DNA of 35,961 bases from an uncultured Bacilli bacterium. Lineage in GTDB: Bacteria; Bacillota_I; Bacilli_A; RF39; UBA660. Made by a program: the position numbers and the translations under genes. Positions 3,474 through 31,662 of the stretch are shown piece after piece. Position 1 is the stretch's first letter, and each line of letters opens with the position of its first letter. The stretch lies in NCBI GenBank assembly GCA_944359025.1, contig CALVSM010000003.1:1-35961 (forward strand), written 5' to 3'. The notes beneath the pieces were generated by a model, which ran no database searches, was not told the DNA's origin, and worked only from the letters and a program-made list of their open reading frames with translations.

Positions 3474-3499
3474 TAAAAAGATAGCCTATCGACTATCTT
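3474..3499 (-). terminator. Intrinsic terminator of the stalk-domain protein gene
   Basis: - strand AAGATAG-tcgatagg-CTATCTT followed by a T tract, overlapping the stop codon. Confidence 0.6.
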
Positions 3500-5328
3500 A
3501 TATGATCATATTCATCTTCCCCGATATAAACGCGATTACCATTTTCATCATAATAGTAAGCACCATCGTAATTATTATAATCATCATTATAATCATCGTT
3601 ATAATCGTCGTCAATTGTATAACCATAACGATTTAATAAGGCACTATTAGTTGCTTGATCCCAACTAATACTTGTACCAAACATCGCTGATATATCACGG
3701 GCAGGAACGTAAGTTGTTCCATTAATAATATATACTTCTGTTTTTTGACCATTAGTTAATTGTGGTGTATATAAATTACCATTAAAATAAATATTTACAC
3801 CGATAGCAGCTGTTACTTCTTTTTTAGTTAATGTTTTACTTGGTTGTTCATTAGATACAGGTACCGCTGGATAATTTTTAAAATATACTTTATTGCCATT
3901 AGCATCAATATAAAATTCATTACTGATATTATTGTTAGATTGAATATAAACTGAATTATTTTTCCATTCGACATCCGCACCATATAAAGTTGAGATAGCT
4001 GCAATTGGTAAATAAGTTGTTCCATTATGAACAAATGGAGTTATCTTGTTACCATTAGCATCTTTTGGTGTATATAATATTCCATCGACATAAATATTAA
4101 CACCAGTATAAGCATCTATTTTAACATTTTTTAATTGACTTGGATTAGTAACAGCACTAGATTGTAAATCTTTAGTATCTAAATAACCACGGTCGATAGT
4201 TAATAATGTTTCATTGCCATTTCTATAATAAACAAAGCCTTGTTCTTCACTAATTCTAACAGGTTTATTGTTGATAGAATATTCGACATAATCACGATAA
4301 TTAATACGACTAGAATTTTTATTATATACCTTTGATACCATTAAAGATTGTTTATAATTCAAATATTGATTTAAAGCTGGTTTTAAATTTTGATAATAAG
4401 CATATTTATTATTGATAGTTTGACTAATTAAATTAGTATCACCATAAATAGCTAAAAGGACATCTTCTTTTGAACTGTTGCTGATATTATAATTACCAGA
4501 ATTAATAGCGCTTTCTATTTTGTCATAGAATATGTCAATATCACGCATTGCTTGAAGACACATATTTTCATTATTTTTAGGAATAACTACTGTATCATAT
4601 TCCGTTTTAAAATTAGGTCTTGTTCCACTATATGTCACATCTAAATTAGGAATAACTACTAAAGTTTTATCTTTGCTTAATTTAGAATCATCTAAAGTAA
4701 TTATTCTTGAATCAATAATTTGATTATTTCTTAATTCATATACTCCAATATTCACTAAATTATTATTACCAATACTATTAGCAAATACACAAGTATAATC
4801 ATCATCATAATCATTTAAGTCTCTAACCGAAATGTTAGTAACACTAGAAAAAACTAATTTACTTTCGTTAATTTTACTATCTAAATATTTTTTAATAATT
4901 TGTTTTTCCGTGCTGTTTAAATCATCCATTACTTCTTCATATTCATTTTCAATTAAATTAATGCTAGCTAACATTCTTGCCATACTATTAGCTTTTCTAC
5001 CAGTATGGTTAATATTCATTCCTCCATTAGCTAAAACCGTATAAATTTCTTGAAAATCATCATCGATATCTTCGATAATTGCATTTAATTCTCTAGCTTG
5101 GCGATCGGTAACATAACTTGATTTATATGTTCCTTCATTAACATATTCATTATTGCCACTATAAGTAATATTTATCGTTGGAAATTCAATATTAGCAGCT
5201 TCAGCTTTAGTAGCACCAGCGCCAACGACAAAACCAGTTGCTAAAACAAAAGGTAGAGCTTTTTTTAAAATTAAATTTTTGCCATTATGGACAAGTTCGT
5301 TAATTTTTTGTCTATTAATATTAATCAT
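3493..5328 (-). CDS. Secreted/surface protein with two C-terminal copper amine oxidase N-terminal (stalk) domains
   Basis: Signal peptide KKALPFVLATGFVVGAGATKAEA. Two stalk repeats: VNIYVDG...PFVHNGTTYLPIAAIS...VEW and VNIYFNG...YIINGTTYVPARDIS...ISWD. Confidence 0.75.
   Translation of the reverse strand: MININRQKINELVHNGKNLILKKALPFVLATGFVVGAGATKAEAANIEFPTINITYSGNNEYVNEGTYKSSYVTDRQARELNAIIEDIDDDFQEIYTVLANGGMNINHTGRKANSMARMLASINLIENEYEEVMDDLNSTEKQIIKKYLDSKINESKLVFSSVTNISVRDLNDYDDDYTCVFANSIGNNNLVNIGVYELRNNQIIDSRIITLDDSKLSKDKTLVVIPNLDVTYSGTRPNFKTEYDTVVIPKNNENMCLQAMRDIDIFYDKIESAINSGNYNISNSSKEDVLLAIYGDTNLISQTINNKYAYYQNLKPALNQYLNYKQSLMVSKVYNKNSSRINYRDYVEYSINNKPVRISEEQGFVYYRNGNETLLTIDRGYLDTKDLQSSAVTNPSQLKNVKIDAYTGVNIYVDGILYTPKDANGNKITPFVHNGTTYLPIAAISTLYGADVEWKNNSVYIQSNNNISNEFYIDANGNKVYFKNYPAVPVSNEQPSKTLTKKEVTAAIGVNIYFNGNLYTPQLTNGQKTEVYIINGTTYVPARDISAMFGTSISWDQATNSALLNRYGYTIDDDYNDDYNDDYNNYDGAYYYDENGNRVYIGEDEYDHIR
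3574..3609. repeat. 3 x 12-bp in-frame tandem repeat encoding (DDYN)3
   Basis: attataatcatc / attataatcatc / gttataatcgtc on the + strand. Confidence 0.85.
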
Positions 5329-8111: not shown

Positions 8112-8498
8112 CTATTTTTGTTCTCTTAATACTAATTTATCGATACTAGTTTTAATATCTTTTTCACTAAATGGTTTGTTTAAAACATCGACGATAGGAT
8201 ATTTAAAGACTTTATCGATAGAATCTTTCGTATCATCACCAGTTAAAATACATACAGGTATTTTTTCAAACAAATGGTTTTTTTCAAATATTTCTAACAC
8301 TTCAAAACCATTTAATTTAGGCATATTTAAATCTAACAACATTCCGATAAATTGTTTATCAAAATTGTTGCGAATAGCATCGATTGCTTCAATACCATCT
8401 TTAGCCAAAATAACATTAAATTCATCTTTAAATATCTTATTTACAAAGCTTGTAATTATACTTGAATCATCAACAACTAATAAAATTTTTGTTTCCAT
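8112..8498 (-). CDS. Stand-alone response regulator receiver domain (CheY/Spo0F-like fold)
   Basis: LVVDD, LLDLNMPKLNG (phosphoacceptor Asp), ILTG, KPF; no output domain; RBS GAGGT. Confidence 0.88.
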   Translation of the reverse strand: METKILLVVDDSSIITSFVNKIFKDEFNVILAKDGIEAIDAIRNNFDKQFIGMLLDLNMPKLNGFEVLEIFEKNHLFEKIPVCILTGDDTKDSIDKVFKYPIVDVLNKPFSEKDIKTSIDKLVLREQK

Positions 8499-10813: not shown

Positions 10814-10840
10814 AGAAAAAAACCAAATAATTAATTTGGC
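10814..10840 (-). terminator. Intrinsic terminator after the rnfD-G fusion
   Basis: - strand CCAAAT-taatt-ATTTGG followed by TTTTTTT, overlapping the stop codon. Confidence 0.6.
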
Positions 10841-12216
10841 TTATAATCTTCTAAAACATTACTAACTAACTTTTTTAAAGCTGTACTTGTTACAGTTGCG
10901 CTACTTACAGTATCTAGATTATCTAAATTATCTTGATTATCGATCAATTGGTTAATATAATTACTGTCTAAAACTAATTGATATCGATTAGGGGTTTCGT
11001 GTTGGGATGTTATCTCAATTCCCGTAATACGGTCATTCTCAATAATAACTTGAGCTTTTATTCTACCACCATAACCTTTTTGGGCTACATTATAAATTGT
11101 TTGATTACCGATTTTTTCTTTGCTTTCAATATCAAAATCAGGATCAGTTACCCCATCGGTTTTATTAGTTATAGCTAAAGCAATCGTTAAAATAATAATT
11201 ATTAACCAAGCTATAACAAACCAAATAATCGATTTTAATAAATTAAATCTCGCGCTCATACCAACTTTATCTAAAACAAATACTAACATGTTAACAATTA
11301 AAATACTAAAAGCAACACCTTCAACCCCAGTAAATCTAAATATTACCGTAATAATACCTAATAATATACCTTGTAATACTTGGCCAATTGGCGTAACACA
11401 ACTAGTTACAGGATCGGTTGCCATAAATACCGCCCCAAACATCAAGCCACCGCTTAAAATATGAAACAATGGATAGTATAAATCTTGGCCTAACATTCTA
11501 CCAACACCTAAAGTAATAACAAATACCGTGGTGATGTAAGCTAAAGGTATTTTCCACTTAATGCTTCTTGTCGCACATAAATAAATATACGAAATTATAC
11601 ACAATAAAGCACTTGTTTCCGCTAAACTACCAGGAATAGTACCGATTAAAAAATTAGATAAATCACCATAAGGTTCAACTAATTCTTCATAGCTACCAAT
11701 ACCTGATACCATCGAATTATTAGTTAAAGGGGTCGAACTAGATATAGTATCTAATTCATAAGCATTAAAATAATTATCCGTCGTTAAAATACTTGAAAAA
11801 ATTAAAATAATAAATAAATAACCGACTAAGGCAGGATTAAAAATATTTTTTCCAAAACCACCAAAAATCAATTTACTTACACTAGCTACGATACTGCCGA
11901 TAACAATAACATAAATCGGTGTATGTAAAGGTAAAATTAAAGCTAAAAACATTCCTGGGAAAAAGGCATAAGCTCCTTTTATATAGTTCTTTTTCTTAAA
12001 AATTAAAGCATATATACTTTCAATAACTAAAGAAGTCAAAGCACCAATTAAAATATTAATTAACGGGTTAAACATTTCAATAAAGCTAATTAAGCCTTTA
12101 CTGTAAGGAATATATCCGTTTTTATAAATAGAAAAGATAACAATTGGTAATAAAGCGATTATTAAATGTAACATTATTTTATTGGTACTATGTTTACTTC
12201 TAATAAATGGACCCAT
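10831..12216 (-). CDS. RnfD/NqrB-family membrane subunit fused to a C-terminal FMN-binding (RnfG-like) domain
   Basis: RnfD motifs FGGFGKNIFNPALVG, DTISSSTPL, GSLAETS, GGLMFGAVFMATDPVTS, EGVAFSIL. Then an extra TM helix and KGYGGRI...ETP...DTVSSATVTS (FMN_bind flavinylation motif). Confidence 0.88.
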   Translation of the reverse strand: MGPFIRSKHSTNKIMLHLIIALLPIVIFSIYKNGYIPYSKGLISFIEMFNPLINILIGALTSLVIESIYALIFKKKNYIKGAYAFFPGMFLALILPLHTPIYVIVIGSIVASVSKLIFGGFGKNIFNPALVGYLFIILIFSSILTTDNYFNAYELDTISSSTPLTNNSMVSGIGSYEELVEPYGDLSNFLIGTIPGSLAETSALLCIISYIYLCATRSIKWKIPLAYITTVFVITLGVGRMLGQDLYYPLFHILSGGLMFGAVFMATDPVTSCVTPIGQVLQGILLGIITVIFRFTGVEGVAFSILIVNMLVFVLDKVGMSARFNLLKSIIWFVIAWLIIIILTIALAITNKTDGVTDPDFDIESKEKIGNQTIYNVAQKGYGGRIKAQVIIENDRITGIEITSQHETPNRYQLVLDSNYINQLIDNQDNLDNLDTVSSATVTSTALKKLVSNVLEDYKPN

Positions 12217-13463
12217 TATTTATCACCCCTTACTATATTTTTAGCTTCACTAACTCTTTCTCTTACAAATAATTTAGCAGGACATATATATGAACATAAA
12301 CCGCAACTAATACATTTTTCAGGATGATATGATTTAAGTTTTTTACTATCTTTGTTTTTTAATTTCATTATTAAAACAGGACTTAATTTAACAGGACAAA
12401 CACTAACACATTTACCACAATCGATACAAGCTGTTACTTTATCGATATTTTCCTTTAAAGCTAAAACACAATTTAAATTAGAAGAGATAACTAAATCATC
12501 GACTTTGGTTCCCATCATCGGACCGCCAGCTACAATAATACTATTTTCGTTTATTTTTAATTCTTCTAATACTTCTTGAACTGGTGTTCCGATTTTAACT
12601 AAAACATTAGCAGGATTTTTTAAGCCTTCGCCTGAAAAAGTTACAATTCTTTCAATCAATGGTTTATTATACTTTAAAGCTTCATATATTGCATAAATCG
12701 TCGAAACATTATTGACGATTATTCCTATTTCACTTGGATAATTAACATAATCTTTACCAGTAACTTGTTTAACTAAAGTTTTTTCCCACCCCATCGGATA
12801 AACATTAGGAACTAGTTTTATTTTTATTTTTAAATAAGTCCCGATAAAACTATCAAAAATTTGTTTTAAAGCAACATTTTCTTTTTTAATAGCTATGATA
12901 GCTTCTTTAATTTTATTTATCTCTAATATGGCATCGATCGTTTCTAATATTTCCTCACATTTAACTTTAGCTAAAGCGTAATCAGCCATAATATATGGTT
13001 CACATTCGACCGCATTTATAATTAAAGTATCGATATTTTTAGCTTCATACTTAACATAAGTTGGAAACCCAGCTCCACCCATACCGATAATACCATTTTC
13101 TTTTATTAATTCTAAAAATTCTTCTTTAGAATATTTATTAATTATTTTTTTAATATTTAGTTTATTTTCGATTTTTTCTTTAAAATCATTTTCGATAACG
13201 ACACATTTTACTTTATCGCCGTTATAACAAGTTCTTTCCTCAAAATCTAAAACCGTTCCACTGACACTAGCATGAATCGGTATACGAAAATCACCTTTTC
13301 TTTTAGCAATAATACTTCCTTTATAAACATATTCGCCTTTATTTACTAATATTGTAATATTTGTATCATTACCACTTATCAAAGGAATATATACTTTTTT
13401 AGGTTTATTATAAACAATTAATTCTTCTTTGGTTAATTTATGCTTATCAATTTTTACTTTCAT
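12216..13463 (-). CDS. rnfC: RnfC/RsxC electron transport subunit (NADH/FMN-binding, 2x[4Fe-4S])
   Basis: PIHASVSGTV, GIIGMGGAGFPT, ECEPY, YPMGWEK, GGPMMG, CIDCGKCVSVCP and CISCGLCSYICP. Confidence 0.93.
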   Translation of the reverse strand: MKVKIDKHKLTKEELIVYNKPKKVYIPLISGNDTNITILVNKGEYVYKGSIIAKRKGDFRIPIHASVSGTVLDFEERTCYNGDKVKCVVIENDFKEKIENKLNIKKIINKYSKEEFLELIKENGIIGMGGAGFPTYVKYEAKNIDTLIINAVECEPYIMADYALAKVKCEEILETIDAILEINKIKEAIIAIKKENVALKQIFDSFIGTYLKIKIKLVPNVYPMGWEKTLVKQVTGKDYVNYPSEIGIIVNNVSTIYAIYEALKYNKPLIERIVTFSGEGLKNPANVLVKIGTPVQEVLEELKINENSIIVAGGPMMGTKVDDLVISSNLNCVLALKENIDKVTACIDCGKCVSVCPVKLSPVLIMKLKNKDSKKLKSYHPEKCISCGLCSYICPAKLFVRERVSEAKNIVRGDK

Positions 13464-13499
13464 AATATTTCCCTTTCTATAATTGTTACCTTAAAAATA

Positions 13500-13528
13500 A
13501 TTATACTAGATTACTAATTAATTTTCAA
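13500..13528 (-). promoter_or_regulatory. Sigma-A promoter for rnfC
   Basis: TTGAAA (13528-13523), N17, TATAAT (13505-13500). Confidence 0.7.
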
Positions 13529-13531
13529 GCA

Positions 13532-13565
13532 AAATAAATTAACTATACTTAATTGTATAGTTAAT
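13532..13565 (-). terminator. Intrinsic terminator after pgsA
   Basis: ATTAACTATAC-aattaa-GTATAGTTAAT 11-bp hairpin followed by TTATTTT on the - strand. Confidence 0.7.
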
Positions 13566-14151
13566 CAAATAAAACTTTTTTATTTTGTTGATAATATTGG
13601 ATACCTGAATAAACTGATAAAACAGTTGCAATAATAAGTAATACATCAGATACTTTAATGTTAATAAGTTCAAAAGGTAAATTGTTAAATAAGGTTAAAG
13701 CTATTCCTAACATCATAAAAATTGTTTTAACTTTACCAGATAAAATAGCAGCTACCACTTCTTTTTTAGCGCCGACAATCATTTTAATAATGTCAACTAC
13801 GGTATCACGAGTTACAACGATAACAGGAATAATCGGATGAATTAACCCTTGACTAGCTAGTATAATTAAAACCGAATTAACTAAAAATTTATCAGCTATC
13901 GCATCTAACATTTTACCTAAATCGGTTACCATTTTATATTTTCTAGCTATATAACCATCGATAAAATCTGTTAAAGAAGCAATTATAAATAAAGCACCAG
14001 CAATAAAATATTTAATATCGACAACCATAGCCTCATTAATGAATAATTTAGTAGCATTTAAACCAACAGCATCAAAAGGAAATAGTAAGATAGTTACAAT
14101 TAAAACTGTTAAAAAGATTCTAATTAAAGTTACCTTGTTGGGCAAATTCAT
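13561..14151 (-). CDS. pgsA: CDP-diacylglycerol--glycerol-3-phosphate 3-phosphatidyltransferase
   Basis: MNLPNKVTLIRI, TDFIDGYIARK...GKMLDAIADK (CDP-alcohol phosphotransferase motif). Confidence 0.96.
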   Translation of the reverse strand: MNLPNKVTLIRIFLTVLIVTILLFPFDAVGLNATKLFINEAMVVDIKYFIAGALFIIASLTDFIDGYIARKYKMVTDLGKMLDAIADKFLVNSVLIILASQGLIHPIIPVIVVTRDTVVDIIKMIVGAKKEVVAAILSGKVKTIFMMLGIALTLFNNLPFELINIKVSDVLLIIATVLSVYSGIQYYQQNKKVLFD

Positions 14152-24438: not shown

Positions 24439-26481
24439 TTACTCTTTAAAATCTACAACGCCACAAAATGGATTATCCACATCATAGCCATTTTGATTAC
24501 CTAAAAACATATCCATTAAGAAAGCTAATATAAATGGTACTAAAAATAATAATGCTGCTGATATAAGTCTAGTTGAAAAACGTTTAAAGGTATTTTTCAT
24601 TTCTTTATCGGCGTCACCACTAGCGACTGTTCTAATAAAATCTAAAGTACCTAAACCTAAAGCAAGTAATGGTCCAGCTATTTTAATAATATCTAAAAAC
24701 CATATTAATTTTTCGACAAATTCATTAGATAAAACATCACAATCGACTGTTAAATCGTCAATTATACCATTAGATACTAAACTTTCATAAAATTTATGAA
24801 ACTGAATACATTCTTCCATTCTACCAATATATGAAGAATTATTTAATTTAGTACTATTGTATCCACCATATATTTCATTGCAATAAGTAACAATTTCTTT
24901 TATCTTTTTTTCAGTAACATAAGTTATAGATTTTTGACATTCCTCATCATTACAAGAAAAACCTGTTTTTATATTCCAACCATTTTCACATTGATTATTT
25001 ATTAAATTAGTTATTTTAAAAGTTTCTTTGCTAGAACCATTATAATCATAAAAAGTAATATTTTCTGTTAAATTAAGTAAACTATTAGTTGTTAAAGCGT
25101 TTAATCGATCACCTAATTCACACATCATAAATTTATACATATACCCATTATATTTAGACATTCCTAGTTCAATAGTTGTACGATCCATTTCATTAAGTAC
25201 AGCATTTTGAACTAACCTAGTTGAACCGGAAAATTGAGTTGCCGATATTTTGCAATCAGTCGTATCGCCATCTAAACAGTCGGTATATAAATATGGCAAA
25301 TCATCACAAGATTCCATTAGTTTTCCACTTGGAATATCTATTTCTCCAGGCATTGGAATACCTTCTGGACTCGTATCGTTTATAAAAATTTGGTAAAATG
25401 ACGACTCCCCAAACGGTTTAGTTTCTCTAACTGAATAATACCAATTATCTAAATTCTCCGCCATTTCCGATTCAATTCCATAATTACAAATTTGACCTTG
25501 TTCATCTTCACCTTTATCAAAATCGATGAAACTAGCACTTTTAGTTAAACTATAAGCTTCTTGATATTCTGCATTGTTAACTTCTTCCATCAAAGCATCT
25601 AAATCAGAAACAGTTTTTGAATCTAAATAACGATCTAATTCACTAGTTGGAAAGCCTATAGCCACTTGTGAGTCCCAAACATGGGTTGGTGACCAAGCAG
25701 GAGTTAAAGATTCTGAACTATAACCTAACATTATCATTGTTGGACAAGAAAATGCTTTAGTTTCGCTATACCAAAATACTCGTGGGTTTAATAAATCATA
25801 TACTTCTAAAGATTGCATCATCCCCGCTAAAGAATACCAACCATTAGCATCAGCTGAAACATCTCCTTCATAAAAATATTTAATATTACCACTACTTTCG
25901 CCCATTAATGAATAACTATAACCATCGCCTTCTTTTTCTAAACGATAAATAATTGTATCGGGAGCAAGAGTTCCTTCAATATTTCCTTGATAAGTACAAA
26001 CTAACTCATTTAATATAGCATTATTTGAAGTATCTTGATAATTTTCTACAAGGCTAAGACGCGCTATTTTATCAGTTCCACTTATACTTTGATTACTACT
26101 ATTGCTAAAAAACCAGTTATCTAATCCCGCAGGAGCTTGCCAATAAAGATAATTAAAGCAGCCTTCTTCCTCAATTATTTCATGATTAAGTTTATCTCCA
26201 TCATAAGGACTATTACTGTCTTTTACTTTAATTGTCGCACCAAAATCATAAGAAGTCCACAAATCGTCGTTGCCATAATTCTTATTCAATTTATCAACTC
26301 TTACATCATCTAATGGTTGAATATAAACAGAATCTGAATCATAAATACGGACAAATACTTTAAATTTTGAACCATCATCATTTTTTCCTTCATACATACA
26401 TCCAAGATCTTGGGCTTCAACTTTGTCTATAAACCCCAGACACAAAATAAGTGTGAAAAAAGCAAATATCCATTTTTTCAT
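24439..26481 (-). CDS. Cys-rich secreted protein anchored by a C-terminal two-TM pilin-like hairpin
   Basis: Signal peptide ending VEA; 16 Cys in the mature part; C-terminal IIKIAGPLLALGLGTLDFIRTVASGD...KRFSTRLISAALLFLVPFIL; RBS GGAGG. The function label is inferred. Confidence 0.6.
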   Translation of the reverse strand: MKKWIFAFFTLILCLGFIDKVEAQDLGCMYEGKNDDGSKFKVFVRIYDSDSVYIQPLDDVRVDKLNKNYGNDDLWTSYDFGATIKVKDSNSPYDGDKLNHEIIEEEGCFNYLYWQAPAGLDNWFFSNSSNQSISGTDKIARLSLVENYQDTSNNAILNELVCTYQGNIEGTLAPDTIIYRLEKEGDGYSYSLMGESSGNIKYFYEGDVSADANGWYSLAGMMQSLEVYDLLNPRVFWYSETKAFSCPTMIMLGYSSESLTPAWSPTHVWDSQVAIGFPTSELDRYLDSKTVSDLDALMEEVNNAEYQEAYSLTKSASFIDFDKGEDEQGQICNYGIESEMAENLDNWYYSVRETKPFGESSFYQIFINDTSPEGIPMPGEIDIPSGKLMESCDDLPYLYTDCLDGDTTDCKISATQFSGSTRLVQNAVLNEMDRTTIELGMSKYNGYMYKFMMCELGDRLNALTTNSLLNLTENITFYDYNGSSKETFKITNLINNQCENGWNIKTGFSCNDEECQKSITYVTEKKIKEIVTYCNEIYGGYNSTKLNNSSYIGRMEECIQFHKFYESLVSNGIIDDLTVDCDVLSNEFVEKLIWFLDIIKIAGPLLALGLGTLDFIRTVASGDADKEMKNTFKRFSTRLISAALLFLVPFILAFLMDMFLGNQNGYDVDNPFCGVVDFKE

Positions 26482-30721: not shown

Positions 30722-30749
30722 TAAAAACCTTGTCTTTTAAAACAAGGTT
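30722..30749 (-). terminator. Intrinsic terminator after the HD-domain gene
   Basis: AACCTTGT...ACAAGGTT hairpin followed by TTT on the - strand. Confidence 0.7.
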
Positions 30750-31635
30750 ATCTAATAGTAATTCCATCACTATTTTTAACTTTTTCATCTAACTTTTGAA
30801 TCGTAACATCAAAAGCATCTAAAACATAAGGATTATTTCTTTTTTCTTTGAGACGATGTAATATATTTTCTTCTTTAATCACTTCGGCTACACTTAATAA
30901 TTTAATTTGATTAATAAAGCTTAATCTAACTAATTCTCCGACATTATTGTTCCATAAGCCTTTTGCTTTTAATTCAGCTATATTTAAATATTCTCCTTTA
31001 TAAAACATAGCAAACACTTTAGAATCTATTTTAGAATCACATTTACTAGGTGTCCAACGACCATCCAAGATTTGATGATATATATCAAGACGATCGACAT
31101 CTTGAACAATTTGGGTAATTGTATCGATTACTTTTCTTTTAGTATCTATATCGGCTTTTAAGAAAAATTCATAAGCATCTTCACTTTTAAGTAAATCACT
31201 ACATAAAACTAACAAAGATTTTGAATCGACGATTTTAGTTACATGGTCGTTAACAACATCGCTAATAGCTTCATCAAATACTCTCGTATTAGGAATTTGT
31301 TGTTTAATTAACCCCGATAATAAAACTACTTTACCTAAATCACCATGATTTTTATAACCATAATTAATTAATTTAGTATCATCAAAAGTAGCAGTATAAC
31401 GGGCCTGTCTAAATCGGCCAATATCATGATCTAAAAAAGTTATACGCGCTAATTCTTTAAAAGAATCATTAAAGCCTAATTTTTCTAAAACTTTAGTTCC
31501 ATCAGATACAACTTCATGGGAATGAACTATTTTCCGTTCCATTAAAGCTATAATTTGATCTTTGTCGCCAATGATACTCTTTTTTTCTAATTCAATATGC
31601 TTTTTAAAATATTCTAATGCATTTAAGTATAGCAT
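30748..31635 (-). CDS. HD-domain phosphohydrolase
   Basis: K..HS..V, HDIGRF.Q, HG..G, H...D.DRLDI pattern of HD proteins. Confidence 0.8.
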   Translation of the reverse strand: MLYLNALEYFKKHIELEKKSIIGDKDQIIALMERKIVHSHEVVSDGTKVLEKLGFNDSFKELARITFLDHDIGRFRQARYTATFDDTKLINYGYKNHGDLGKVVLLSGLIKQQIPNTRVFDEAISDVVNDHVTKIVDSKSLLVLCSDLLKSEDAYEFFLKADIDTKRKVIDTITQIVQDVDRLDIYHQILDGRWTPSKCDSKIDSKVFAMFYKGEYLNIAELKAKGLWNNNVGELVRLSFINQIKLLSVAEVIKEENILHRLKEKRNNPYVLDAFDVTIQKLDEKVKNSDGITIR

Positions 31636-31662
31636 AATCATCCCTCTTTTAATTAGGGCTTT

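Follow-up and report, generated by a model that had tools for sequence, protein, structure and literature searches.

A two-gene Rnf half in an uncultured Bacilli bacterium: RnfC and an RnfD-FMN fusion as a candidate wire from NADH to an extracytoplasmic flavin

The window (the whole analysed stretch of 35,961 nt) harbours a two-gene locus that encodes RnfC and an RnfD protein fused to an FMN-binding domain, with no gene for RnfA, RnfE or RnfB beside them. We propose that the two proteins act as a stand-alone, Rnf-derived wire leading from NADH to an extracytoplasmic FMN, and rate this reading slightly above even, at a probability of about 0.55.

Both genes are on the minus strand, rnfC at 12216-13463 (415 aa) and the rnfD::FMN_bind fusion at 10831-12216 (461 aa). 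The stop codon of the former and the start codon of the latter share one nucleotide at 12216 (junction TAATG); the ORFs, their domain matches and this junction bear out the two-gene arrangement that a first-pass annotation had described. Domain matches also recover the flanks named there, pgsA and spoIVFA: on one side lies a pgsA-like CDP-alcohol phosphatidyltransferase gene (13561-14151), on the other an M23 peptidase gene followed by an M50 peptidase gene, resembling SpoIVFA/FB. The promoter proposed upstream of rnfC corresponds to a promoter-like site of the sigma-70 type (TTGAAA-17-TATAAT, 13500-13528, minus strand), the best of its kind between 10200 and 14200, which agrees with the consensus at 11 of its 12 positions. 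It counts for little as a promoter, because such matches are common in AT-rich DNA: the region holds 34 promoter-like sites, against 27.8 +/- 5.6 in shuffles. Similarly, the terminator claimed behind the fusion gene is a weak candidate. By eye, an AT-rich hairpin overlapping the stop codon and followed by a run of seven T is seen at 10816-10840 (minus strand; hairpin proper 10823-10840), and the 60-nt stretch folds at -9.6 kcal/mol in RNAfold (no shuffle control), but a terminator scan reported none after rnfD::FMN. As the next gene begins 41 nt downstream, read-through is possible. None of the five sequencing runs (two studies) that contained 0.21-0.44 of the sampled words was an RNA run.

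The RnfC ORF is intact and encodes RnfC_N, an FMN domain of the Nuo51 type and, at the C-terminus, a ferredoxin-like domain holding a 4Fe-4S dicluster (TIGR01945, PF13375, PF01512, Fer4). It scores 348.3 bits against TIGR01945 (rnfC; cut-off 245.95), and residues 23-411 align to 7zc6_C with an E value of 3e-71. The motif GMGGAGFPT (residues 127-135; 13059-13085, minus strand), which we take from the NuoF/RnfC literature to be the NuoF-like FMN/NADH site, is kept in nearly all of the 28 RnfC rows covering this stretch, with slight variation only and in half and full forms alike. Two CxxCxxCxxxCP motifs (regular-expression matches at residues 346-357 and 384-395; 12279-12428, minus strand), predicted to bind the two 4Fe-4S clusters, are both present in 29 of 29 aligned RnfC sequences.

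For the fusion protein (AF2 model with pLDDT 84.2 and pTM 0.79), a Pfam scan returned PF03116 and PF04205 and nothing else. Its RnfD core (residues 2-322; 11251-12213, minus strand) matches PF03116 with E 2.2e-74 and 7zc6_D with E 3.7e-38 (phmmer); in Foldseek, its fold reaches target-normalised TM-scores (TMt) of 0.82 to 9eri_D and 0.84 to 7zc6_D. Against TIGR01946 the fusion obtains 190.1 bits, just below the cut-off of 207.05. The appended FMN-binding domain is minimal (residues 361-458; 10843-11136, minus strand; PF04205 E 2.4e-13 at 381-456) and resembles the flavinylated FMN domain 8p2b_A (TMt 0.83) rather than 7zc6_G (only 0.39), its score against TIGR01947 (rnfG) being 26.3 bits, far under the cut-off of 102.

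Two atypical flavinylation-type sites, DTISSSTPL in RnfD and DTVSSATVTS in the FMN domain, had been pointed out before, and both hold up. Their threonines T162 (codon 11731-11733, minus strand) and T441 (in DTVSSAT; codon 10894-10896, minus strand), the predicted attachment sites of covalent FMN, are invariant among the 26 sequences of alignment A1. DTISSSTPL aligns with LDGVTTATPL of 7zc6_D, and T162 presumably corresponds to the FMN-bearing threonine of RnfD. Most fused relatives retain the motif DT[VI]S[SG]xT, with deviations at the second or fourth position in G022, G010 and G025. In RnfD, the flavinylated threonine carries FMN and the protein has ten transmembrane (TM) helices (PMC12174285, excerpt). 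In the fusion, the AF2 model adds an eleventh (residues 326-351; 11164-11241, minus strand), which joins RnfD to the FMN domain. This extra helix mirrors the anchor at the N-terminus of RnfG; since the RnfG domain is extracytoplasmic, the FMN domain is predicted to lie outside as well. The stretch behind the helix is acidic (K+R 2, D+E 5, compared with K+R 2, D+E 1 before it); together with the helix count of ten plus one, this argues against a cytoplasmic FMN domain.

The first-pass annotation saw no further rnf genes around the locus, and our searches agree for the genome as assembled: PF02508 (RnfA/E) had no match in it, and a family-tailored RnfA/E profile gave a best E value of 0.099 among 3144 six-frame ORFs. 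This assembly is 72% complete, so that the case for absence rests on relatives, most of which are draft assemblies from metagenomes. PF02508 was detected in three of the 30 genomes of the genus (intact in G016 and G041, degenerate in G021) and in two of the nine that are at least 90% complete; the custom profile found the same three and nothing at E <= 0.1 in the other 27. TIGR01944 (rnfB) was above cut-off in none of the 30, an N-terminal RnfB piece of about 90 aa occurring beside rnfA in G016 and G041 only. A complete Rnf whose rnfA/E/B merely reside elsewhere is thus not what these genomes suggest.

All 30 genus genomes encode PFOR, whereas an FeFe hydrogenase was found in only five, so reduced ferredoxin needs a sink; at least 22 of the 25 genomes with PFOR and no hydrogenase found also have no RnfA/E/B matches. 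Flavodoxin (PF00258) was found in none of five genomes, and a 298-aa thioredoxin-reductase-like ORF, below the TIGR01292 cut-off, is a candidate TrxB or ferredoxin:NADP reductase. The need for a ferredoxin sink raises the question if the locus still belongs to a ferredoxin:NAD+ oxidoreductase, in which unrecognised, non-homologous or very diverged membrane partners replace RnfA/E/B. PF02508 can indeed miss diverged forms, such as an RnfA-like ORF of G021 that BLAST and the custom profile found, and two relatives (G032 and L097) carry two unfamiliar membrane ORFs in the place of E/A. We consider such a replacement improbable: in the window, the M23 gene follows the operon immediately, 27 of 30 genus genomes were negative with the tailored profile, and phmmer searches of the own genome with seven diverged or unknown candidates returned noise (best E 0.002, a 92-aa ORF). 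Moreover, the RnfE/A homologues of G021 retain only one of four conserved cysteines, an intermediate state that points to cluster loss rather than replacement.

How the two-gene form arose can be read from G041, where the gene order is rnfC-D::FMN-E-A-miniB-M23-M50-rplU-ysxB-rpmA. The window has this order minus E-A-B at the same chromosomal site and therefore represents a clean deletion of E-A-B. The fusion is a conserved architecture, being full-length in 26 of the 30 genus genomes and in 24 of 151 genomes of an order-wide sample. It is not a special mark of the half system but the usual form of the family inside complete operons, since 18 of these 24 genomes have RnfA/E. The remaining six, the half forms, fall into four groups (g1; G101, whose sister G066 is complete; g24; f2). 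At least four lineages have thus lost A/E but retained C and D::FMN, and parsimony on the RnfC+RnfD::FMN tree gives five state changes, losses being counted on a gene tree and not on a species tree. Among relatives, RnfD bears one or two FMN domains, in some cases alongside a separate RnfG. What looked like fusions in Proteobacteria, Bacteroidales, Leptotrichiaceae and further groups turned out to be tblastn joins, local HMMs finding separate, adjacent rnfD and rnfG. G032 and L097 were rejected as half forms; their two unfamiliar membrane ORFs at the place of E/A have cysteines in RnfA/E-like positions (by eye).

That the module can decay is evident from two species of the genus, G006 and G024, which have RnfC and a truncated RnfD (304 and 274 aa, respectively) with the FMN domain missing. 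The fusion search gave no match in G007 and G012, and RnfD pseudogenes with stops occur in the order (G054, G134). A functionless relic, on its way to being lost after deletion of the rest of the complex, is nonetheless a very improbable explanation and largely refuted by the substitution pattern. In an 11-species clade whose members all lack A/E, dN/dS is 0.03-0.18 for both genes (10 pairs) and 0.05-0.16 for the TM+FMN part alone (4 pairs), and there are no stop codons; rnfC and rnfD::FMN are under purifying selection after A/E loss. In addition, all cofactor motifs are kept, ApbE is present in each of the six half-form genomes of the order sample, and the same reduced state has been reached independently.

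The genome does encode ApbE, on contig C22 (PF02424 E 1.2e-65), and a lipobox LTGC read from its sequence identifies it as a lipoprotein. The cluster there reads apbE-eetA-eetB-FMN lipoprotein, with matches to PF07009 (E 3.2e-28) and PF07456 (E 6.6e-39) beside apbE. PF07456 corresponds to EetB, the FAD-export subunit (PMC9973259, excerpt), and the PF07009 ORF is probably EetA, judging from gene position. The lipoprotein is PplA-like: it has one domain, scoring 21.6 bits against PF04205 (marginally below the cut-off of 22), while the excerpt of PMC9973259 gives two flavinylation sites for PplA; its lipobox Cys and T130 within TD[AS]V[ST]G[CVA]T show no variation among 17 sequences. Exactly two FMN_bind ORFs are present in each of five genus genomes, the sole other one of the own genome being on a different contig from the fusion. 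In L097 and G032, the lipoprotein, rnfC, rnfD::FMN, apbE, eetA and eetB form one cluster. Across the order sample, ApbE was found in 23 of 24 fusion genomes versus 9 of 127 others, and the PplA-like lipoprotein in 22 of 24 versus 2 of 127, counts that overstate independence, the genomes of a family being related to each other. Any flavinylated RnfD would be accompanied by ApbE, whatever lies downstream, and the lipoprotein is not specific to the half form, as it also accompanies complete Rnf operons.

From these parts the following path can be proposed. The gene content of the locus, its ancestry and conservation, the selection acting on it and its co-occurrence with other genes are established here; which way electrons flow, what accepts them and whether an ion is coupled are what we infer. 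Deletion of rnfE-rnfA-rnfB from a complete operon would have left a stand-alone Rnf half, in which NADH would be oxidised at the FMN of RnfC and electrons would pass through the two 4Fe-4S clusters of RnfC to RnfD. They would cross the membrane inside RnfD via riboflavin and then the covalent FMN on T162, to arrive at the covalent FMN on T441, in a domain tethered outside by the fused eleventh helix. The lipoprotein ApbE would attach both flavins on the outside of the cell, using FAD that EetB delivers. The retained segment, NAD-FMN(C)-2x[4Fe-4S](C)-riboflavin(D)-FMN(D)-FMN(G), is contiguous and forms part of the established Rnf path (PMC12174285, excerpt). With neither the [2Fe-2S] cluster of RnfA/E nor RnfB, electrons could not return to ferredoxin, so the chain would end at the outer face. 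From there, electrons would most likely go first to the flavinylated PplA-like lipoprotein that co-occurs with the fusion and then to external acceptors, soluble or solid, and a fermenter without quinone prenyltransferase would gain an extra outlet for NADH. The conduit suggested by the first-pass annotation is supported insofar as we found neither intact rnfA/E/B elsewhere, nor signs of a cytoplasmic FMN domain, nor a lack of ApbE; its function as a wire is a prediction from sequence.

If, and to which extent, such a wire would serve bulk disposal of NADH is a separate matter. LDH-like and Fe-ADH genes are each present in four of five genomes, so NADH has ordinary sinks, and no large extracytoplasmic reductase was found: fumarate-reductase-like acceptors (PF00890) were rejected, as only the first 30-47 profile positions, the N-terminal Rossmann stretch, match, in unrelated FAD enzymes, and the FMN_bind ORFs number two in each of the five genomes. 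The same wire might then be used for extracytoplasmic housekeeping (repair or detoxification at the surface, oxygen scavenging, reduction of ferric iron so that it can be taken up) or for inward flow to NAD+, and Méheust et al. tie some partial NQR/RNF clusters to iron assimilation (PMC8238504, excerpt). We regard this as unlikely, though worth serious consideration; no iron transporter or repair enzyme adjoins either locus (window, C22), and inward flow requires a low-potential external donor, of which there is no indication.

The locus might also encode an NQR-like NADH:quinone oxidoreductase working on environmental quinones, with RnfD as the quinone site. NqrB, the RnfD homologue, hands electrons from riboflavin to ubiquinone (PMC12174285, excerpt), and some lactic acid bacteria are described as using exogenous quinones for extracellular electron transfer. 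The quinone site of NqrB, however, consists of two extra N-terminal helices missing in RnfD (PMC12174285, excerpt), and our fusion starts in RnfD fashion, its residue 2 aligning to residue 12 of 7zc6_D. A UbiA/DmkA prenyltransferase (PF01040) was found in none of five genus genomes, and continued selection on the outer FMN domain and its threonine would be left unexplained, which makes a quinone reductase quite improbable.

The wire from NADH to the outer FMN also has a bolder version, which we hold to be doubtful: together with the PplA-like lipoprotein it might constitute a quinone- and cytochrome-free respiratory chain, in which RnfD alone pumps Na+ or H+ and the 4Fe-4S clusters of RnfC also accept electrons from PFOR-reduced ferredoxin. 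Such direct entry at RnfC, if true, would explain the 25 of 30 genomes with PFOR and no hydrogenase found. The route of the coupling ion in Rnf and Nqr is debated between RnfD/NqrB models and RnfA/E models (PMC12174285, excerpt). A selected complex of C, D and an FMN domain without A/E/B offers a ready-made minimal system for this question and lets one study the half-reactions on the NADH side by themselves; if pumping through RnfD alone were true, it would be a natural deletion experiment separating the two types of model. The relatives further provide a stepwise dismantling series, from the complete operon via A/E homologues with lost cysteines and the two-gene form to RnfC plus an RnfD without FMN domain or flavinylation threonine. 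More generally, the locus suggests that fermenting Bacilli with reduced genomes, in which no quinone prenyltransferase was found, can send electrons to the cell surface; flavin-based extracellular electron transfer would then be expected from a broader set of organisms.

With the complete Rnf complex RnfCDGEAB (7ZC6, 9ERI, 8AHX), the window system has in common the homology of RnfC and RnfD, the cofactor motifs, the flavinylation threonine and the C-then-D order, and its direct ancestor was a complete operon at this locus. It differs in lacking RnfA, RnfE and RnfB, hence the membrane [2Fe-2S] cluster and the ferredoxin port, and in having, instead of RnfG, a shorter FMN-binding domain appended to RnfD at the C-terminus. 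Judging from gene content, ferredoxin:NAD+ exchange along the known path would be impossible. As regards Na+-NQR, the fusion starts RnfD-like and stays far under the cut-offs of the NCBIfam nqrB models (e.g. 144.5 bits versus 414). A precedent for an RnfC-type NADH module that can function apart from a full Rnf complex is PrdC, an electron-transfer protein of proline reductase resembling RnfC; it is presumably soluble and without an RnfD partner, and the window RnfC scores 158.1 bits against TIGR04481 (PrdC), far short of the required 490.

In Listeria, extracellular electron transfer based on flavins (Ndh2, demethylmenaquinone, FmnB, EetA/EetB, PplA) follows a similar overall logic, from NADH to a surface flavoprotein, and our genome likewise clusters apbE/fmnB, eetA, eetB and a small lipoprotein with a flavinylation motif. 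Its membrane-crossing step would, in contrast, be RnfC-RnfD::FMN instead of Ndh2 plus quinone, in keeping with the missing UbiA/DmkA matches in the five genus genomes. Extra FMN-binding domains on Rnf were proposed by Méheust et al. 2021 (PMC8238504, excerpt) as a second path to extracytosolic acceptors. Those multi-flavinylated-RnfG complexes are complete, whereas the window keeps only the outward branch and has lost the ferredoxin branch.

Our literature searches turned up complete rnfCDGEAB operons, or RING-finger proteins that have nothing to do with Rnf. No system of RnfC and RnfD only, or with fused RnfD and RnfG, was retrieved, while the cluster listing in Supplementary file 1 of PMC8238504 might contain the type. 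Closest in kind are the two-subunit NQR/RNF-like systems (PMC8238504, excerpt; modelled in 10.1101/2024.03.13.584918), which, like the window locus, are partial Nqr/Rnf forms keeping one of two transmembrane paths. According to the same excerpt, they combine an RnfD-like domain fused to a cytosolic C-terminal PF00175 with a separate FMN_bind subunit, lack the RnfD flavinylation threonine and occur mainly in Actinobacteria and the candidate phyla radiation. In the window, a separate RnfC equipped with FeS clusters would be the entry point for NADH, and it is the FMN domain that is fused; the RnfD threonine is kept, the Pfam scan shows no PF00175 in the fusion, and the cluster has no separate FMN_bind subunit. 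The definitions in the excerpt of PMC8238504 (RnfB for RNF, PF00175 for NQR/RNF-like) would place it in neither class. Of the undescribed system that the first-pass annotation thought possible, the idea of a one-way partial Nqr/Rnf conduit is already in print (PMC8238504, excerpt), with an architecture other than the separate RnfC plus RnfD::FMN of the window.

The half-Rnf of the window consists of two genes on the minus strand, rnfC (12216-13463, an ORF of 415 aa) and rnfD::FMN (10831-12216, 461 aa), which overlap by one base (TAATG) and are flanked by a pgsA-like gene and by M23/M50 peptidase genes. In a family scan, the RnfC protein comprised RnfC_N, a Nuo51-type FMN domain and a 4Fe-4S dicluster domain. 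It scored 348.3 bits with TIGR01945 (cut-off 245.95), and its residues 23-411 align with RnfC of the Rnf structure 7zc6 (E 3e-71). In the second ORF, RnfD (PF03116) takes up residues 2-322 (E 2.2e-74); a match to FMN_bind (PF04205) follows at residues 381-456 (E 2.4e-13). In an AlphaFold2 model built from 26 sequences (pLDDT 84.2, pTM 0.79), an additional helix (326-351) joins the RnfD part to a small beta/alpha domain (361-458). Foldseek comparisons (target-normalised TM-score, TMt) gave 0.82 and 0.84 for the N-terminal part against RnfD of the Rnf structures 9eri and 7zc6. The C-terminal part resembles the flavinylated FMN domain 8p2b_A (TMt 0.83), whereas its similarity to RnfG of 7zc6 is weak (TMt 0.39); the fused domain is thus predicted to be a minimal FMN-binding domain at the RnfG position rather than a full-length RnfG. 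The first-pass annotation had also placed a promoter and a terminator around the two genes. The promoter-like site (13528-13500) is the best of the region (11/12), although such sites are frequent in the DNA of the window; the proposed terminator amounts to an AT-rich hairpin and a run of seven T, which went unreported by the scanner, and the next gene follows after 41 nt.

The same annotation saw no further rnf genes at this locus, and searches of the own genome brought up none elsewhere. The organism is an uncultured, commensal-type bacterium for which metagenome assemblies are the sole source. The window (GC ~27%) is contig C3 of a draft genome of 993,644 bases on 82 contigs (completeness 72.2%, contamination 3.3%), in which PF02508 (RnfA/E) had zero matches. 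Of 3144 six-frame ORFs, the best match to a tailored profile made from the family's own RnfA/E, degenerate ones included, had E 0.099, and phmmer searches of this genome with seven diverged or unknown candidates returned noise only. Since this assembly is incomplete, the case for the absence of rnfA, rnfE and rnfB is carried by the relatives. Among the 30 genomes of the genus, PF02508 matched three: G016 and G041 have two intact genes each, and G021 yielded one weak match; the tailored profile found these three again. Of the nine genomes at least 90% complete, two had a PF02508 match. TIGR01944 (rnfB) exceeded its cut-off in none of the 30, and the sole RnfB-like pieces in the genus are ORFs of ~90 aa adjoining rnfA in G016 and G041, the latter matching PF04060 only. 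The complete operons of this family close with mini-RnfB proteins of this kind (88-93 aa), as in G041 (L043:3613-3894) and G066 (L042:7593-7859); these proteins have the PF04060 FeS domain alone, without ferredoxin-like Fer4 domains, which is unusual for RnfB. The full-length fusion occurs in 26 of the 30 genomes, two others (G006 and G024) have a truncated RnfD, and in the incomplete genomes G007 and G012 no fusion was found.

How the two-gene form arose is suggested by G041, where the order is rnfC, rnfD::FMN, rnfE, rnfA, mini-rnfB, M23, M50, rplU, ysxB and rpmA. Because the order in the window is identical except for the missing E, A and B, with 56-90% identity between the common neighbours, the window form is a clean deletion derivative of the complete operon. 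In an order-level sample of 151 genomes, 24 have the full-length fusion, and since RnfA/E adjoins it in 18 of these, the fusion is older than the loss of A/E. The six fusion genomes of this sample without A/E fall into four groups: G000 (the own genome) and G018 in the window's genus, G101 (sister to G066, a complete form), G052 and G180 in another genus, and G025 in another family. In a tree of RnfC plus RnfD::FMN built by maximum likelihood (25 rows), the window lies inside a clade of 11 species, all without A/E (support 100/100), with the complete forms G016 and G041 just outside. The tree omits G019, G006, G024, G002 and G003, in which one gene is partial or missing. Parsimony on it gave five state changes over 23 scored rows, a number that has to be taken as an estimate because this is a gene tree. 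A scan with one genome per species recovered a fused ORF in 24 of the 80 loci listed; 18 of these have RnfA/E in the locus, three run off a contig edge, and in L073, L086 and L097 no A/E was present within ~6 kb downstream of the fusion.

Within the A/E-less clade, dN/dS (Nei-Gojobori, 10 pairs) was 0.03-0.14 for rnfC and 0.06-0.18 for rnfD::FMN, and 0.05-0.16 for the TM-plus-FMN part alone (4 pairs). With dS values of 0.5-1.6, the species have diverged substantially since A/E was lost. Both CxxCxxCxxxCP motifs of RnfC are conserved throughout the aligned rows, as are GMGGAGFPT and NAVECEP in nearly all of them. The flavinylation-type sites had been called present but atypical. The predicted covalent-FMN threonines, T162 of RnfD (D-T-I-S-x-x-T-P-L) and T441 of the FMN domain (D-T-V-S-[SG]-A-T), are invariant in an alignment of 26 sequences, and the sole oddity is Ser in place of Gly.

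Several relatives show other states of the system. Downstream of rnfD::FMN, G021 has RnfE- and RnfA-like ORFs (L022, G021:C36, 46-1069) that retain one of the four Cys residues conserved across all ten intact RnfA/E aligned, and it is an apparent intermediate between complete Rnf and half-Rnf. These four residues are ligands of the [2Fe-2S] cluster in RnfA/E. In two other species of the window's genus, G006 (L031, 3558-4472) and G024 (L032, 3571-4395), an intact rnfC adjoins a shortened RnfD (304 and 274 aa, respectively) without FMN domain; in these species the module is in decay. G084 (L045, G084:C11, 3087-5466) and its congeners G154 and G126 have RnfC plus an unfused RnfD of ~370 aa, and neither RnfA/E nor ApbE was found in these three genomes. 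In G084, RnfD is missing its flavinylation Thr (the site reads SSVVNIEY) as well as the FMN domain; this type is a still more reduced form. Eight loci (L039, L042, L024, L079, L081, L090, L103 and L113) have a tandem pair of FMN_bind domains on RnfD (573-621 aa), and L103 and L113 additionally a separate RnfG.

The flavin transferase ApbE, for which a search had been proposed, is present in the own genome. Outside the window, four adjacent genes on contig C22 (locus L020, 9779-12040) encode a lipoprotein ApbE, an EetA-like NusG_II protein (PF07009), a PF07456 protein and a 148-aa lipoprotein that matches FMN_bind weakly; a two-component system comes next. According to the available part of PMC9973259, PF07456 corresponds to EetB, the Listeria ECF-S subunit that exports FAD, often found beside apbE and eetA. 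This cluster probably serves the half-Rnf as its flavinylation module. In each of five genomes of the genus, the fusion and the lipoprotein are the only two FMN_bind ORFs, and the lipobox Cys and T130 (TD[AS]V[ST]G[CVA]T) of the latter are invariant in 17 relatives. In the order sample, ApbE occurs in 23 of the 24 fusion genomes, all six half forms included, versus nine of the 127 others, and the FMN lipoprotein in 22 of 24 versus two of 127; because these genomes are related, the counts cannot be taken as independent. The lipoprotein also occurs alongside complete Rnf operons. In L097 (a Culicoidibacterales metagenome-assembled genome) and L025 (G032), a single cluster holds the FMN lipoprotein, rnfC, rnfD::FMN, a separate FMN_bind gene, apbE and eetA (followed by eetB in L097), together with two unknown membrane ORFs of ~175 aa each, which may be very diverged RnfE/A.

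As laid out in the available part of PMC12174285, electrons in Rnf pass from ferredoxin via RnfB, the RnfA/E [2Fe-2S] cluster, RnfG FMN, RnfD FMN, RnfD riboflavin, two RnfC 4Fe-4S clusters and RnfC FMN to NAD+; RnfD has 10 TM helices, and RnfG, with a single TM helix at its N-terminus, has an outer domain resting mainly on RnfD. Exactly the NAD-side segment of this path is retained. Ten RnfD helices plus one would put the FMN domain on the side of RnfG's outer domain, and for these two reasons we read the pair as a putative wire that carries NADH electrons to an outer FMN, in line with the conduit proposed earlier. The most plausible first acceptor beyond this FMN is the FMN lipoprotein; no fumarate-reductase-like enzyme was found, and UbiA prenyltransferase was found in none of five genus genomes. 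Whether the half-Rnf still moves ions depends on which published model holds, the one placing the ion path in RnfD or the one placing it in RnfA/E.

The half-Rnf no longer has Rnf's ferredoxin branch; RnfA/E occurs in three of the 30 genus genomes. PFOR is present in all 30 (own copy G000:C5:4220-7570), FeFe hydrogenase in five, and a small 4Fe-4S ferredoxin is encoded in the own genome (G000:C34:3186-3413); flavodoxin was found in none of five genus genomes. A thioredoxin-reductase-like ORF below the profile cut-off might be a ferredoxin:NADP reductase, and a bold possibility is that ferredoxin is reoxidised by entering directly at RnfC. As LDH-like and Fe-ADH genes exist, the conduit would be an additional, not the sole, outlet for NADH.

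Elsewhere in the window, two minus-strand ORFs, 24439-26481 (680 aa) and 30748-31641 (297 aa), matched no Pfam family at E <= 0.001. A probable surface protein of 611 aa (3493-5328, minus strand) has a single Pfam match, at its C-terminus, to a copper amine oxidase N-terminal-like domain. Between rpmA and obg, a position presumably occupied by spo0B in Bacillus, lies a stand-alone response-regulator receiver domain of 128 aa (8112-8498, minus strand).

Our searches of the literature, supplementary tables aside, turned up no account of a system built from RnfC and RnfD::FMN. The nearest comparison is with the NQR/RNF-like clusters of Méheust et al. (PMC8238504), of which the available part of that paper reports 127, chiefly from Actinobacteria and the candidate phyla radiation; there, a PF00175 NAD-binding domain is fused to an RnfD-like domain, the FMN_bind subunit is separate, and electrons are proposed to flow from NAD(P)H in the outward direction only. 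[quoted passage not shown] In the portion available of a later preprint (10.1101/2024.03.13.584918), the NQR/RNF-like system is described as having lost the RnfD flavinylation Thr. The two systems have their logic in common but not their parts: the half-Rnf has a stand-alone RnfC, its FMN domain is the part that is fused, and it keeps the RnfD Thr.
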